The notes beneath the pieces were generated by a model that made no database searches, was not told the DNA's origin, and saw only the letters and a list, made by a program, of their open reading frames with translations. DNA of 64,000 nucleotides. It comes from Vicingaceae bacterium (GTDB lineage: Bacteria; Bacteroidota; Bacteroidia; Flavobacteriales_E; Vicingaceae). Made by a program: the position numbers and the translations under genes. How positions within the stretch are numbered: the first letter of the stretch is position 1; the number at the start of each line of letters is the position of its first letter. Positions 7,961 to 34,395 of the stretch are shown one piece after another. The DNA lies in assembly GCA_965267605.1 (NCBI GenBank), contig OZ254088.1:1354790-1418789 (forward strand). Reading direction: 5' to 3'.

Positions 7961-8467
7961 GTGACAATGAGAAAAGTATTAGCGATTCTAGCATGTGCTA
8001 CCCTAATAGCATGCTCGGGAGGTGAAGGAAATGGAGAAAACGGAGGCGATGCAGCCGGAGAATGGAAAGTGAGCTTTGACGCTTTAATGAGCGAGCATCA
8101 GGATTTCATGGGGGCTTATAATGCCAAATTGGACGAATTGGAAGAATGGGCCGGCAAGCACGAGCAGAAAGGTGATTCATCTTTTATGGCACTCGAAGAA
8201 ACACACACTTCCATGCTTGAAAAGCACGAGGACTGGATAGAAGAATACGCATTCAACATTAAAGACCACGAGGACCTTAAGGCTGCTTACGATGCTGGTG
8301 AATTAACTGAAGAGGAGCTTAAAGCAGATATTGGAACCATCGATGGTCATACACAAGGGATCAAAGATGCCCGTGAAGGGATGCTTCAGACCATTGATGG
8401 AATGATCACAGAACACATGCAAGCCGTTTCCAGCAATGATGATGACGGCTTCGAAGATGATCTGTAA
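7961..8467 (+). CDS. Acidic lipoprotein, hypothetical
   Basis: Lipobox LIACSGG after a signal peptide. The sequence is Glu/Asp-rich and helical, with no known domain. Confidence 0.5.
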   Translation: MTMRKVLAILACATLIACSGGEGNGENGGDAAGEWKVSFDALMSEHQDFMGAYNAKLDELEEWAGKHEQKGDSSFMALEETHTSMLEKHEDWIEEYAFNIKDHEDLKAAYDAGELTEEELKADIGTIDGHTQGIKDAREGMLQTIDGMITEHMQAVSSNDDDGFEDDL

Positions 8468-22253: not shown

Positions 22254-22309
22254 AGCCAATTATTCAAATTTTTACGTTTAATTCACGTTAGTTGGATTCA
22301 AATCGCACC

Positions 22310-28207: not shown

Positions 28208-30361
28208 GTGCGCGTTTACCTCTCCATACTCTTTGCGCTGCTATCGCTTGCCGGTACAGCACAATTTCAACCTTCACCATTCACGTATAACCGTGATTCG
28301 ATCATTAAGTACCGCAATCTGCTTGAGAATGCTACTTCCAGAAAAGATCGATTTCGCATACTTGTTAGACTATCGGCCTACTACGCAAACAGCAATAGTC
28401 CCACCGAGATAGACTCTGGTTTGCTTTACGCACACATTAACCTTAGAGAAACACCGGAGGATCACGTAGCCAATCGCGCTCATATCTATCACCAAATAGC
28501 TTTATGTCATATTAGTCAAAGGGATATGATGGGAAGTGTTGAGGCGAGCATTGAGTCTATGCGTCTCTACGAGCAGCTTGGAAAAGATTCACTGGCAATG
28601 ATGAAGGCCTTCGCAATTGGCAACATCTATACACACTTAGGACAGATCAGCAAAGCCATTCCTTATCACCTTAAAGCCCTGAAATATGCAGAGAAGCATG
28701 ACTATAAGCTCGAATACATGCGAATTTGCTCAGGAATTGCGGACTCATACCGTATCATGGGTGATTATACCAAAGCGATCGACTACTCAAGTAAAGCACT
28801 GAACGCGGCCATTAAGTCAGGCAATGATATCCGAATCGGATATGCTTACTACAGTCTCGCCAGCATCATGTACGAGCAAGAGAACTTTGAGAAGTCGATT
28901 GAGGTCATGCGAAAAGGAGAACAACACTTTCAGTCAAGTGGAGAACGCCATGGTGTTGCCTTGTCTCAAAACCTTATTGGAGCTTCTTATGCCGAACTGG
29001 AGCAATTCAACAAAGCGCTGTTCCATTTAAAGAAGGCGCGTAGCATATGGATTGTGGACAGGATGAAGGAACCTTATGTTGCCTCTGTAGATGAGGTGCT
29101 GGGTCTTGCCTACTACAAACTCGGGCAAGACGACAAAGCCATACAGATACTGGAAAACGCCATCCGAATTTGTACAGAAAAAGGCTACTATCAGCAATTG
29201 GCAAGTTGTTACAAGACCCTGTACCTGGTGCACAATCGAAAGAAAAACTTCCAGCAGGCATTGGATGCTTACGTGAACTATTCTACTTATAACGATTCCG
29301 TTGCCGATCTGGCAAATAGAGAGGCACTTGACAAGCTGGAAAGTGAACACAAGGAAGACACGAAGCAACTGATGATTGATAAACTACAGGCTGCTAACGT
29401 TGCAAGGGACAAGGAATTCGAACGTCAGCGCTGGCAAAACATTGCGCTGTTCGGATGTCTTGGATTGGCCGTAGTATTAGTGATTATTGCTTTGATAGGC
29501 TATAACAACAAACGCAGATCAGTGGTGCTGATTAACGAACAGAAACAGGAAGCGGAAGAGCAACGAGAATTAGCCAACGAGCAGCGGCTCATTGCCGAAG
29601 AGAAGAACAGGGAGATTCTTGATTCCATTTCTTACGCCAAGCGTTTGCAGGATGCGGTGATTCCACCTGCTGCACAGTTCATTCAGAACTTTAGCGAGGG
29701 TTTCGTCCTTTTTAAACCCAAGGATATCGTATCGGGTGATTTCTATTGGATGAGCACCTCCGGCAGCGCTGTTTACTTTGCCTGCGTAGACTGCACCGGG
29801 CATGGTGTGCCAGGAGCAATGGTGAGCATGGTGGGCAACAATGCTCTCAACAGGTGTGTAAGAGAATTTGGTTTGACTAAGCCTTCTGAAATATTAGACA
29901 GGTTGTCTGATCTTGTTGAAGAAACATTCAAGGATTCTACCTCCAGCGTTAAGGATGGAATGGACATTGCCTTGTGCAAGTTTGACAGAGATGCGCATAC
30001 GCTGGAATACGCAGGTGCCAACAATCCACTTTGGATCATTCGTTCCAACGGGAACGAGGTAGAGGAGACAAAAGCGGATAAGCAACCCATTGGGTGGTTC
30101 TTCGAGAAACAACCCTTTGTAAATCATGAGGTAGCACTCAATCCGGGCGACAGCATCTTCCTTTTTTCCGATGGATATGCCGATCAATTTGGGGGACCAA
30201 AGGGTAAGAAATTCAAGTACCGTCAACTGAGGGAACTCCTTTTAGCGCATAACAATAAGTCGATGGGTGAACTCGAATCCATTCTGCATCAGAAGTTCGA
30301 AGAATGGCGTGGAGAGCTTGATCAAATAGACGATGTATGTGTTTTGGGTGCTAGGGTCTAA
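28208..30361 (+). CDS. Sensor protein: N-terminal signal peptide and TPR repeats, one transmembrane helix, a coiled coil, then a SpoIIE/PP2C phosphatase domain
   Basis: TPR-like helices through residue about 400. The transmembrane segment is IALFGCLGLAVVLVIIALIGY. The PP2C block (DIVSGDFYWM...VDCTGHGVPGAMVSM...FSDGYADQFGG...IDDVCVLGARV) is paralogous to 20727..22253. Confidence 0.8.
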   Translation: MRVYLSILFALLSLAGTAQFQPSPFTYNRDSIIKYRNLLENATSRKDRFRILVRLSAYYANSNSPTEIDSGLLYAHINLRETPEDHVANRAHIYHQIALCHISQRDMMGSVEASIESMRLYEQLGKDSLAMMKAFAIGNIYTHLGQISKAIPYHLKALKYAEKHDYKLEYMRICSGIADSYRIMGDYTKAIDYSSKALNAAIKSGNDIRIGYAYYSLASIMYEQENFEKSIEVMRKGEQHFQSSGERHGVALSQNLIGASYAELEQFNKALFHLKKARSIWIVDRMKEPYVASVDEVLGLAYYKLGQDDKAIQILENAIRICTEKGYYQQLASCYKTLYLVHNRKKNFQQALDAYVNYSTYNDSVADLANREALDKLESEHKEDTKQLMIDKLQAANVARDKEFERQRWQNIALFGCLGLAVVLVIIALIGYNNKRRSVVLINEQKQEAEEQRELANEQRLIAEEKNREILDSISYAKRLQDAVIPPAAQFIQNFSEGFVLFKPKDIVSGDFYWMSTSGSAVYFACVDCTGHGVPGAMVSMVGNNALNRCVREFGLTKPSEILDRLSDLVEETFKDSTSSVKDGMDIALCKFDRDAHTLEYAGANNPLWIIRSNGNEVEETKADKQPIGWFFEKQPFVNHEVALNPGDSIFLFSDGYADQFGGPKGKKFKYRQLRELLLAHNNKSMGELESILHQKFEEWRGELDQIDDVCVLGARV

Positions 30362-30410
30362 GTCAGAAATCGGCTATTCGCGAACTCATTTGATATTCAA
30401 TCTCGCAGTG

Positions 30411-30452
30411 AGTCAAATCGATGACGTTTGTGTCTTAGGTGCCAGAGTATAA
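30411..30452 (+). pseudogene. Orphan 3'-terminal gene fragment homologous to the last 13 codons plus stop of the upstream TPR-SpoIIE gene
   Basis: caaatcgatgacgtttgtgtcttaggtgccagagtataa translates to QIDDVCVLGARV*, identical to the end of 28208..30361 but differing at 9 synonymous third positions. It lies 50 bp downstream of that gene's stop. Confidence 0.5.
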
Positions 30453-30669
30453 TATTGAGGCCATCGATTCATGTGCTCATATAGATCATTCTGCGCGAAT
30501 AATATAGACTATGCCCGCCTGGCGGACGGGCAGGTATGTGTTCTTGGAACCCGCATCCAGGCTGTTAAAAATCGTTAATAGCCGAACATTCCGCATTTCG
30601 TTCATGTAGAATAAATAGTGTTAGTCATTTTTGACTAGATTAGTTTAGTATCAACCAAAACCGATTTAC

Positions 30670-31242
30670 ATGGCAGAATGGTGGGAAGGTCTAATGACCA
30701 TCGAGAAAGTTTACTGGTGTTTCGCAATTCCTTCAACAATTATTTTCCTGATTATGATGGTGCTCACCTTTGTAGGTGGAGACACAGACCCAGGTCTGGA
30801 AACAGATGTTGAAGTTGAAGCGGATGCTGGCGTTGGGTTTCAGTTCATATCAGTAAAATCCCTTCTCGGCTTCTTCACCGTGTTCTCGTGGGCTGGTCTG
30901 TCTTGCATAGATGCAGGATACTCCACCGGCACTACAATTACGATTTCCTCACTTGCTGGTCTCGCCATGATGGCCGCGGTTGCCACTATGTTCTATTTCA
31001 TGACCAAGCTACAGGATAGCGGAACGCTCGATATGCGAAATGCGATTGATGGAATTGGTGAAGTATACCTTAGAATTCCAGGAGAACGAGGCGGCATGGG
31101 TAAAGTTCAAATCAAGATCCAGGGTTCCTTAAGAGAGCTCGATGCACTGTCAGACGACATCGAAGCGTTGGAACGTGGTATGGTGATACGGGTGACCAAC
31201 ATTGTAAGCGAAAACATTCTATTAGTAACTAAAGAGAAATAA
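30670..31242 (+). CDS. NfeD-like (YuaF/YqiJ-type) membrane protein, partner of flotillin
   Basis: N-terminal transmembrane helices, then a C-terminal beta OB-like domain (GKVQIKIQGSLRELDALSDDIEALERGMVIRVTNI). It sits 9 bp upstream of the flotillin gene. Confidence 0.6.
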   Translation: MAEWWEGLMTIEKVYWCFAIPSTIIFLIMMVLTFVGGDTDPGLETDVEVEADAGVGFQFISVKSLLGFFTVFSWAGLSCIDAGYSTGTTITISSLAGLAMMAAVATMFYFMTKLQDSGTLDMRNAIDGIGEVYLRIPGERGGMGKVQIKIQGSLRELDALSDDIEALERGMVIRVTNIVSENILLVTKEK

Positions 31243-31250
31243 CTACATCT

Positions 31251-32750
31251 ATGGGTATTCTAACTACAATCTTCCTTCAATTTTCAGGCGGTATTCCGTC
31301 AAATGTTGTACTGGTAGCGCTAATTGCGCTCGCGTTTATAGTCTTCTTCGTGATGTTCACGAGAAGGTACAAACGGTGTCCTTCTGACCGGATTCTGGTC
31401 GTTTACGGTAAGGTTGGCTCCGGTGGACAAGCAGGAGGAAGATCTGCGAAGTGTATCCATGGTGGTGCCGCATTTATTATCCCGATTATTCAGGACTATG
31501 AATTCCTCGATCTGACACCCATCTCCATTGAGGTAAACCTTACAAACGCCCTGTCAAAGCAAAACATTCGAGTTGATGTACCTTCTCGATTCACAGTCGG
31601 TATCTCCACTGAACCTGGTATTATGACCAACGCAGCAGAGAGATTGCTTGGCTTAGGTCAGGAAGACGTTCGTCATCTGGCGCTGGATATCATCTTTGGT
31701 CAGCTTCGTTTGATTGTTGCAACGATGGATATCGAAGAGATCAACAGCAACAGGGATAAGTTCCTTGCCAACGTAACGCATAACGTGGAAGCGGAATTGA
31801 AGAAGGTTGGATTGAAACTGATCAACGTAAACCTTACGGATATCCGTGATGAGTCAGGGTATATTGAAGCTCTGGGTAAAGAAGCCGCAGCAAAAGCGAT
31901 CAACGATGCGAAGAAGTCTGTTGCTGAGAAGAACAGAGATGGTTCGATTGGTGAGGCACAAGCACTTCAGGATCAAAGGGTCCAGGTTGCCGATGCCAAT
32001 GCACGCGCAGTTGAAGGTGAAAACGAAGCCAAAATTGTGGTAGCTAACTCTGAAGCATCTCGAAGAGAAAAAGAGGCGGAAGCGGAAAGACTGGCAACGG
32101 CAGCCGAGAAAGTACAGACGGCAAAAGCGCTCGAAGAAGCTTATGCCGCAGAGAAAGAAGCAGAAAGCGTCAGAGCGGAACGTGAAAGGGCCTCTCAACA
32201 TGCGGATATTGTAATTCCAGCTGAGATCGACAAGCAGAAGGTGGAGATTGATGCAGAAGCTGATGCCGAGCAAATCAGACGGATTGCTAAAGGTGAGGCA
32301 GACGCAATCTTCCTCAAGAAGCAAGCTGAAGCGAAAGGTATTTATGAGATTCTAACCAAGCAGGCGGAGGGTATGGAGATGTTGGTGAAAGCAGCCAACA
32401 ATGATCCGGAAAAGGCAGCCTTGCTGATGATCGCGGATAACCTGCCACAGCTTGTACAACTTCAGGCCGAAGCGATCAAGAACATTCAGATCGATAAGGT
32501 TACTGTTTGGGATTCCGGTAGCGGTGGTAAGGATGGTAAAACATCTACTGCCAACTTCATTTCAGGCCTTTACGGCTCCGTTCCTCCACTTGAAGAAATG
32601 TTCAAGATGGCTGGAATGCAACTACCAGGTTACCTCAAAGGTGAGCCCGTGGAAGATCAGAAACCTGAAGTAGTGCCTGTTGATGAAGATCCAGATACAC
32701 CTCCAACGCCACCACCGGCTCCGGAGAGCGGAGAGGATCAGGCAACGTAA
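31251..32750 (+). CDS. Flotillin (SPFH/band-7 family, FloT/YuaG-like)
   Basis: N-terminal membrane anchor, SPFH domain, then a long EA-rich coiled-coil region typical of flotillins (AEKEAESVRAERERASQ...). Confidence 0.85.
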   Translation: MGILTTIFLQFSGGIPSNVVLVALIALAFIVFFVMFTRRYKRCPSDRILVVYGKVGSGGQAGGRSAKCIHGGAAFIIPIIQDYEFLDLTPISIEVNLTNALSKQNIRVDVPSRFTVGISTEPGIMTNAAERLLGLGQEDVRHLALDIIFGQLRLIVATMDIEEINSNRDKFLANVTHNVEAELKKVGLKLINVNLTDIRDESGYIEALGKEAAAKAINDAKKSVAEKNRDGSIGEAQALQDQRVQVADANARAVEGENEAKIVVANSEASRREKEAEAERLATAAEKVQTAKALEEAYAAEKEAESVRAERERASQHADIVIPAEIDKQKVEIDAEADAEQIRRIAKGEADAIFLKKQAEAKGIYEILTKQAEGMEMLVKAANNDPEKAALLMIADNLPQLVQLQAEAIKNIQIDKVTVWDSGSGGKDGKTSTANFISGLYGSVPPLEEMFKMAGMQLPGYLKGEPVEDQKPEVVPVDEDPDTPPTPPPAPESGEDQAT

Positions 32751-33269: not shown

Positions 33270-33605
33270 ATGAAAAGTCTAAGAAACAAGGTACAGTTGA
33301 TCGGTAATCTAGGTACAGATCCAGAAATCAAGGAATTCGATAACGGCAGCATGCTTGCAAAGCTGGTAGTCGCTACGAACGATTCGTACAAAAACGCCAA
33401 AGGTGAAAAGATCGAAGAAACCCAATGGCACAATTGCGTAGTATGGGGAAAGCCCGCAGAAATAGCCTCCAAATACCTGAAGAAAGGAAGTGAGCTGTGT
33501 ATTGAGGGCAAGCTCACTACAAGAATGTGGGAAGACAGTGATGGCAATAAACGCTATACAACCGAGGTCGTTGTCAAGGACTTCCTGATGCTTGGCGGCA
33601 AATAA
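33270..33605 (+). CDS. ssb: Single-stranded DNA-binding protein (short Bacteroidota type, no acidic tail)
   Basis: MKSLRNKVQLIGNLGTDPEIKEF...TQWHNCVVWGKPAEIASKYLKKGSELCIEGKLTTRMWEDSDGNKRYTTEVVV is an OB-fold SSB signature. Confidence 0.9.
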   Translation: MKSLRNKVQLIGNLGTDPEIKEFDNGSMLAKLVVATNDSYKNAKGEKIEETQWHNCVVWGKPAEIASKYLKKGSELCIEGKLTTRMWEDSDGNKRYTTEVVVKDFLMLGGK

Positions 33606-33688: not shown

Positions 33689-33982
33689 ATGAATACTTAC
33701 TACGTATACCTATTGAAATGCGCTGATGGATCATACTTCAGTGGCATCACCAACGATATTGATCGGAAATTAAAAGAGCATTGCCTCGGGCAGAAATCGG
33801 GCTGCTGGACCTACTCCAGAAGGCCCCTAAAATTGGTCTTTCTTACCAGCTCAGATGATCCTGGCTGGGCCCTTGATCTGGATAAGCGTATCAAGAAATG
33901 GAAGAGATCAAGGAAGCGGACAGTGGTGAGCGAGACCTTTGACGCCTTTCCGGGCCTGTCTCTTGCCAAATGGGCTGATTGA
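33689..33982 (+). CDS. GIY-YIG nuclease family protein (YhbQ/UPF0213-like, about 97 aa)
   Basis: YYVYLLKCADGSYFSGITNDIDRKLKEH is the classic GIY-YIG N-terminus. Confidence 0.8.
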   Translation: MNTYYVYLLKCADGSYFSGITNDIDRKLKEHCLGQKSGCWTYSRRPLKLVFLTSSDDPGWALDLDKRIKKWKRSRKRTVVSETFDAFPGLSLAKWAD

Positions 33983-34053
33983 TCCCAAGAGAGTGTTTGT
34001 CACCGTATTTTGGTGGCAAACACTTTCTTATATTTAATCAAGAACCTTCAGAT

Positions 34054-34395
34054 ATGGCATACAGCGAACTACTTGCGGACCGGGTACGACAAGTACTTAA
34101 CGAACGAAAGATTCCATCCGAAGAAAAGAAGATGATGGGAGGATTGTGCTTTATGGTAGATGATAAAATGTGCGTAGGCATTGTGGGTGAAGAACTCATG
34201 GCAAGAATTGATCCCGATATCTACGAAGAAGCACTCTCCAAACCTGGTTGTAAGGAAATGAACTTCACCGGACGTCCTATGAAAGGCTTCGTGTTTGTAG
34301 AAGCCGAGGGAACCGACATGGATGATGATCTTGATTACTGGGTGGAACTATGTCTTGATTTCAATCCCAGGGCCAAATCAAGCAAGAAGAAATAA
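34054..34395 (+). CDS. TfoX/Sxy N-terminal-domain family protein
   Basis: LADRVRQVL...EEKKMMGGLCFMVDDKMCVGIV matches the TfoX_N pattern (..Ri...L.....v.EkkMFGGlaFmvnGkMf.g). ATG at 34054 preferred over the track start. Confidence 0.65.
   Translation: MAYSELLADRVRQVLNERKIPSEEKKMMGGLCFMVDDKMCVGIVGEELMARIDPDIYEEALSKPGCKEMNFTGRPMKGFVFVEAEGTDMDDDLDYWVELCLDFNPRAKSSKKK

Follow-up and report, generated by a model that had tools for sequence, protein, structure and literature searches.

The short coding fragment that lies just past the stop codon of a TPR-SpoIIE phosphatase gene in a Vicingaceae genome is best explained, as judged from sequence, as a relic without function, which was once a translated 3′ end and was probably pushed out of the gene. 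In the window, the whole 64,000-nucleotide stretch of DNA that was analysed, this fragment is the middle one of three successive copies of the gene end (Table 1), and the best reading of the series is that the most distal copy (copy 3) would be the ancestral end, the orphan (copy 2) an intermediate and copy 1 the end now in use. The corresponding site is empty in a sister genome, the copies differ from one another in the manner of coding sequence, the orphan carries residues specific to its own lineage, stranded ends recur at other SpoIIE loci, and orphans of this kind decay neutrally. How the recombination proceeded, how many events there were, which donor took part and the enzymology are inferred from these observations.

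Table 1. Features at and beyond the 3′ end of the phosphatase gene, with positions in the window
Feature	Position	Strand	Remarks
TPR-SpoIIE (PP2C-type) sensor phosphatase gene	28208..30361	+	717 aa, GTG start; from the ORF list
Copy 1, end in use	30323..30361	+	CAA ATA GAC GAT GTA TGT GTT TTG GGT GCT AGG GTC TAA; encodes QIDDVCVLGARV and stop
GTATGTGTT, 9-nt block	30335..30343	+	exact repeat at 30534-30542; possible crossover or duplication core
Spacer 1	30362..30413		52 nt
Copy 2, orphan, intact and synonymously recoded	30414..30452	+	CAA ATC GAT GAC GTT TGT GTC TTA GGT GCC AGA GTA TAA; encodes QIDDVCVLGARV and stop
Spacer 2	30453..30533		81 nt, with a small GC hairpin at its end (30513-30531); fold not better than shuffles
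Copy 3, probable relic of the ancestral end	30534..30560	+	GTA TGT GTT CTT GGA ACC CGC ATC CAG; encodes VCVLGTRIQ; stop mutated from TAG to CAG
Conserved non-coding element	30561..30669	+	from the ancestral stop to the 190-aa gene; not part of the relics
190-aa gene, no Pfam domain	30670..31242	+	conserved partner of SpoIIE genes

The phosphatase gene matches the Pfam families TPR_12 (2e-27) and SpoIIE (6e-27), and its product is 100% identical to protein P0001. Its end in use and the orphan differ at 9 of 39 nucleotides, which fall in 9 of the 13 codons as one silent third-position change each, and the longest run that they share without a mismatch is 5 nt. The orphan is read in the +1 frame relative to the gene, and no homology between the two copies is found 5′ of the Gln codon, at which the resemblance stops exactly. 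These sequences bear out the original prediction that the orphan encodes the C-terminal peptide of the gene with synonymous codons; its place past the stop was likewise correct, although the spacer measures 52 nt and not the 50 given at that time. When nine random substitutions were placed in the 39-mer by Monte Carlo simulation, the peptide and its stop were kept in 1 of 400,000 trials (~2.5e-6), and even with 4-5 random changes all were silent in just 0.04-0.2% of trials. Because survival of the peptide under random change is so rare, copy 2 is not a duplicate of copy 1 decaying in place, and it evolved as translated sequence. Tandem duplication in place of a unit of ~100 nt is ruled out on the same ground, as neutral decay would yield non-synonymous changes. 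The simulation also excludes a chance effect, the outcome that had been named as a possible refutation. Chance resemblance or an assembly artefact, which the shortness of the match and nothing else favours, deserves hardly any credence: no k-mer common to the copies is of a length that could confuse an assembler, and the same architecture is present in independent assemblies (L008 and L093; L023 and L086).

The order of the three ends is given by comparison with the sole close relative, L081, a 23-kb Logan contig that is fully syntenic and carries an orthologue of the phosphatase with 92% amino acid identity. In L081 the gene ends with GAT GTA TGC ATT CTT GGA GCG CGG GTC TAG, with GCTGTTAAAAATCG directly behind it. 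Between this gene and the next, L081 has 110 nt and the window 308 nt, and the alignment contains a 199-nt gap in L081; relative to that genome, the window thus holds an insertion of 199 bp marked by three end copies, at a site that is empty and has a single end in L081. Copies 1 and 2 sit in DNA that L081 lacks. Copy 3, which lies in the same frame as copy 2 and 81 nt further downstream, is identical to the L081 gene end at 20 of 27 nt, aligns with that end and runs directly into the conserved flank downstream. Since it aligns with the single end of L081 and adjoins the conserved element, copy 3 is taken as the ancestral end in its original place. It has lost the stop and changed A to T and V to I, whereas copy 2 has not acquired a single non-synonymous change in 39 nt. 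The orphan is accordingly an intermediate in the series and not the displaced original end, the ancestral one being the distal copy 3, which the original prediction had overlooked.

The conserved element together with the first ~60 nt of the 190-aa gene (30561-30730) is 96-99% identical to L081, as compared with a background of ~80%. This stretch is strongly constrained and could be a 5′ UTR, a promoter or an unknown RNA; no Rfam match to the element was obtained. Beyond L081, the next-best protein homologues of the phosphatase are ~35% identical. No further relatives of the window lineage are present in the protein collection, and a metagenome scan yielded only relatives of 48% identity (L083 and L084), the databases containing just two genomes from this genus.

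The residues of the orphan tell where it came from. Whereas the C-terminal consensus of the family is Q-[VIL]-D-D-[VI]-[CL]-[VI]-[IVM]-G-x-[RK]-x, Ala at position -3 (LGARV) is confined to the window gene and the orthologue in L081, being present in 0 of ~95 other genomic ends and 0 of 43 other protein homologues. Copy 2 carries this Ala, plus the Val at -6 (GTC) of copies 1 and 3, a position at which Ile is found in L081. Given these two residues, copy 2 derives from the same orthologue group, and neither a generic paralogue nor a generalist element was its source. As first described, the second SpoIIE paralogue of the window, which had been dismissed as the donor, has a different end, QVDDVCVIGVRV. 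Silent divergence adds a measure of time. Between the window and L081, 48% of the codons for identical amino acids differ and 0.64 of the 4-fold sites differ (nine genes); silent sites are near saturation, and copies 1 and 2 (9/13 codons) are at least as diverged. It follows that the two copies were each functional for long, separately, and the lack of any non-synonymous change in copy 2 indicates that its stranding was recent. Until recently, copy 2 accordingly served a diverged copy of this gene as its translated end. The view of the orphan as neither a recent duplicate nor a decaying copy, but a diverged end under protein constraint, has in this way held up.

Copy 1 has a composite appearance. 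Over the shared 27 nt, the four-point sums favour the unrooted grouping of copies 1 and 2 against copy 3 and L081 (13 vs 20 and 22). The first five codons of copy 1 are identical to L081, and its last six group with copy 2, so copy 1 looks chimeric. Copies 1 and 3 differ at 0 of 9 positions within GTATGTGTT and then at 10 of 18, in a motif whose codons are conserved family-wide. Very few sites underlie the quartet grouping, the codon families that copies 1 and 2 share and the 9-nt block without differences between copies 1 and 3, the key comparisons spanning 27-39 nt. An import tract that would show as a surplus of silent divergence in the 3′ half of the gene was considered and rejected (0.68 against a baseline of 0.64, with an unusually similar 5′ half at 0.46); as synonymous sites are near saturation, import tracts inside the gene are untraceable. 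The low value belongs to the TPR half, in which the 4-fold divergence from L081 at 28208-29470 is 0.46, vs 0.68 at 29470-30361 and 0.64 in nine neighbours (p=4e-5), and suggests either a more recent recombination tract between lineages or extra constraint.

The two spacers contain no genes and resemble little else. Local alignment of the spacers with each other, the flank, the rest of the window and 81 related loci gave no significant similarity, and neither the insert nor the spacers matched phage, plasmid or viral collections. The exception is a weak resemblance of the first 27 nt of spacer 1 to the start of the conserved element when both are anchored at the stop (p ~0.007-0.017). A Pfam scan of ORFs, reaching ~7.6 kb upstream and 12 kb downstream, found no integrase, transposase or recombinase. 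The insert has no Rfam match and a fold z-score of 0.00, and a promoter and terminator scan of the intergenic region gave nothing above shuffles. When 12-mers were used to look for distant att-like partners in the loci, chance matches swamped the result. Just before copy 3 the window carries GGCGGACGGGCAG, which may be compared with the sequence that follows the stop of SpoIIE genes in other genomes, where the first 6-15 nt are alike: CGGACGAACA in L012 and L023, GGGACGAACA in L008 and only CGGACG in L045.

Stranded ends are not peculiar to the window and occur behind related genes elsewhere in the Bacteroidota. When the last 12 residues of each gene were sought within 300 nt downstream, in the window and the 81 loci, they were found at 4 of 63 SpoIIE-type ends and at 1 of 451 other long ORFs, the latter borderline (Fisher p = 0.0009). 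This one non-SpoIIE case (L070 ~8231-8350) pairs LHDQIFAPNFTP with LFQQVFYPNFVC 82 nt past the stop and is a partial match. The closest parallel is L008, also of the Vicingaceae, in which the gene end is followed by an intact recoded orphan (MDDVCIIGVRV and stop) and by a decayed third copy sharing 14 nt with the first, the same architecture as in the window. L012, a paralogue in the MAG of L008, has spacers 88-93% identical to those of L008 in genes that are 68.6% identical, with just a trace of the middle orphan. A decayed orphan is present in L017, and in L011 an orphan precedes a tandem array. In L023, a hairpin-bearing insert of 104 nt is flanked by a perfect direct repeat of 43 nt; its 88% orthologue L086 has a hairpin spacer homologous to that of L023, with an identical repeat of 25 nt, and three other orthologues are without them. 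All nine stubs, from six lineages, are at most 24 codons long (8-24), and the distal orphans in the window, L008, L012, L023 and L086 (four or five stubs) begin at the Val(-8) codon. Downstream of the dCache-HAMP-SpoIIE gene, REP-like hairpins without an Rfam match are present in L086 (3870-4030) and L023 (6940-6980). The two hairpins of L086 have a common loop, GAAATGCAATGGAA, and different stems (fold z = -5.55), and the stem ATCCCGAC/GTCGGGAT is common to L023 and L086.

The relatives of L008 show what becomes of such ends. L093, with 90% DNA identity to L008, has the same three ends, the one case in which two genomes have orphans in common; both differences in the functional end are silent (2/2), whereas the three in the orphans are all non-synonymous (3/3; D to G in the metal-binding DD, I to V and C to W). 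As the orphan differences all alter the peptide, the orphans decay neutrally and are not maintained. In the sisters L090/L091, L092 and L006, full-length tandem SpoIIE paralogues, two different ones, occupy the slot that holds the orphans in L008 and L093. Homology between L008 and these sisters ends 10 nt before the stop, and the last three codons and the spacer of L008 match L012 instead. These comparisons indicate that paralogues in the SpoIIE slot come and go and that ends are overwritten from paralogous loci.

We tentatively favour displacement of the 3′ end, a reading that stays somewhat short of an even chance. A diverged homologous copy of the gene, present as a duplicate elsewhere in the genome or on imported DNA, would have served as template or donor when recombination took place, or a break was repaired, close to the conserved motif at the C-terminal end of the coding sequence. 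The last codons of the donor, its stop codon and roughly 50-80 nt of flank would be copied in, and rejoining just upstream of, or inside, the resident end would leave the old end stranded downstream. Two such events may have occurred, or one in which the donor already carried two ends. Only short recoded stubs would persist, since longer direct repeats would presumably recombine out. Decay that rises with distance from the gene (copy 3 more than copy 2) counts for displacement, as does the replacement of the L008 end by last codons and a spacer like those of L012, an analogous event. The single end of L081, the silent divergence of copies 1 and 2, the LGARV of copy 2, the quartet grouping with its chimeric copy 1, the enrichment of stranded ends at SpoIIE genes and the precedents at icd and at Rhs and T6SS loci described below count for it as well. 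The need for two events, or for a donor with two ends, weighs against it. Against displacement from the orthologous locus is that the spacers should resemble the conserved element, which spacer 2 does not and spacer 1 does weakly; no donor of the copy 1 or copy 2 ends was found in the window or the 81 loci.

Nearly as likely, and itself doubtful, is that the stubs were left by deleted tandem paralogues, which would have been duplicated after LGARV arose and retained until silent sites were saturated, their bodies then being deleted down to the last 8-13 codons. Arrays of tandem SpoIIE paralogues are common in the family (e.g. L002, L006, L011, L016, L034 and L041), and the paralogues in the sisters of L008 stand exactly in the slot of the L008 and L093 orphans. 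This reading explains the lineage-specific LGARV of copy 2, and the resemblance between the starts of spacer 1 and the element (p ~0.01) would be expected if the duplicated unit ran slightly past the stop; the unrooted quartet fits two successive duplications after the L081 split. Copy 3 is decayed and copy 2 untouched, and neutral decay of the analogous L008 and L093 orphans has been seen. Yet the slot has no paralogue in L081 or in the distant L083 and L084, no residual homology is left 5′ of the Gln codon, and two duplications, long retention and two deletions are more steps than displacement needs. Random deletion end-points do not predict the uniform shortness or the recurrent Val(-8) start either, unless recombination removes longer stubs. 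A remnant of a deleted tandem paralogue was one of the two origins first proposed for the orphan, and it has fared unevenly, a full paralogue being absent from the slot in L081, L083 and L084 and present in the analogous L008 lineage. The other, an att-like scar, is an unlikely source. Site-specific or Campbell-type integration at GTATGTGTT would make copy 1 attL-like (host 5′ part and element 3′ part) and copy 3 attR-like, with copy 2 inside the insert. The mosaic that copies 1 and 3 form around this short block has an att-like look, and their sharp identity boundary has counterparts in L008 (14/14, then 9/15) and L012 (18/20, then 7/12). The shared Val(-8) start of the distal orphans, the perfect repeat around the hairpin insert of L023, the empty site in L081 and the likewise mostly synonymous e14 icd/icdC precedent fit as well. 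On the other hand, the insert of 199 bp carries no cargo, there is no element in L081 and no integrase or transposase among the neighbouring ORFs, and no second copy of the insert or spacers was met in the window, the 81 loci or the phage, plasmid and viral collections. In copy 2, moreover, the four codons for QIDD differ at third positions only, implying that the whole of copy 2 was translated, as an attP arm would not be, and the core identities partly reflect the family-wide codon conservation of the motif.

Two further proposals assign the ends a role. It is improbable that the motif GAY GAY GTN TGY GTN, conserved at the C-terminal end of SpoIIE-family phosphatase genes of Bacteroidota, is a recombination site at which gene bodies or short hairpin inserts are gained, swapped and lost, the stranded ends being empty cassette docks. 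Still more so is a functional element, in which copy 2 would be expressed as a small peptide mimicking the C-terminal strand of the phosphatase or would serve as a docking module for gene-body exchange. The candidate peptides are a 14-aa ORF from the GTG at 30408 and a 40-aa ORF (MYVFWVLGSKSEIGYSRTHLIFNLAVSQIDDVCVLGARV and stop, 30333-30455) that starts in the last codons of the gene in the +1 frame, ends with the orphan and is absent from L081. The coding capacity and stop of copy 2 are perfectly kept, and L008, L023 and L086 likewise have a middle orphan that is intact; however, copy 2 is absent from the sister species, the start codon is not consistent across cases, and the RNA structure score is z = 0.0 with no Rfam match. 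The changes in the L008 and L093 orphans, moreover, destroy the DD motif and the Cys, as opposed to the silent ones in the functional end. An internal deletion that joined the start codon of a gene to its last codons was considered as another origin of orphans and rejected: in L008 the ATG of the orphan lines up with the motif Val codon, and in the window the region around the GTG start of the gene does not match the sequence before copy 2.

The arrangement has partial precedents. In the icd gene of E. coli, integration of prophage e14/phage 21 has left icdC as a displaced pseudo-end downstream, with a 15-kb prophage that carries an integrase and an excisionase between them; as measured here, icd and icdC differ at 12 of 165 nt, 11 of these at third positions, with 2 conservative amino acid changes (PMC13626634). 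The window shares with this case an intact gene frame with a replacement 3′ end, a former end orphaned downstream and almost silent-only differences; unlike e14/icd, its ends are 52 and 81 nt apart, there are three and not two, no recombinase or cargo is present, and silent sites are saturated. At Rhs and T6SS loci, displaced 3′ regions lie downstream (PMC5361080, citing Jackson et al. 2009), and the orphan tips of Rhs, CDI and T6SS systems have been attributed to one-sided homologous plus illegitimate recombination, with the incoming DNA anchored in the conserved part (PMC5361080). As in these arrays, the ends in the window stand in series, keep part of the conserved coding sequence and run from the newest, proximal, to the oldest, distal. 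Those loci, in contrast, involve variable toxin tips with immunity genes under diversifying selection, while the window has the same peptide throughout, no added gene and no phenotypic variation, in a signalling phosphatase. Remnants of the birth and death of tandem paralogues are also similar, being short pseudogene stubs beside a multi-copy family, with neutral decay as between L008 and L093, but the stubs seen here stand apart in being uniformly tiny (8-24 codons), in starting recurrently within the conserved motif and in their serial stacking. A repeat of the 3′ end just downstream of the gene recalls the VR/TR pair of diversity-generating retroelements. This candidate was rejected, as the differences are not adenine-specific (3/9 at A in either direction) and are all silent, and no RT is found among the neighbouring ORFs. 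To our knowledge, SpoIIE is not a target fold of such elements.

If displacement is the correct reading, the final twelve or so codons in the genes of a large family of signalling phosphatases from bacteria would be a hotspot at which ends are repeatedly rebuilt from diverged homologous copies, leaving datable stubs behind. A mechanism known from toxin loci and prophage attachment sites would then act on ordinary regulatory genes without cargo. The stubs would mark recent recombination, can mislead gene callers and repeat finders, and might serve as a tracer of the turnover of paralogous sensor genes in Bacteroidota. Should the cassette proposal prove true, an exchange system that reshuffles signalling genes would be at hand. 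The orphan alone has no present function and is of specialist interest.

The neighbourhood of the gene holds several further features. The order of SpoIIE phosphatase, 190-aa gene and SPFH/Band_7 gene is conserved (window 30670-32750), and in L083 and L084 (48% identity) the 190-aa gene again directly follows a SpoIIE-domain gene; this arrangement suggests a functional partnership of the phosphatase with the 190-aa protein. Right after the stop of the other SpoIIE paralogue, L081 has an extra HAD-hydrolase gene of ~676 bp (L081 3385-4060), which the window lacks (22254-22292), a second difference in gene content directly behind the end of a SpoIIE gene. An SSB gene and a TfoX_N-domain gene are located 3-4 kb downstream (33270-33605 and 33979-34395). 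TfoX is linked to competence in other phyla, and the TfoX_N gene is a hint that DNA uptake may occur.
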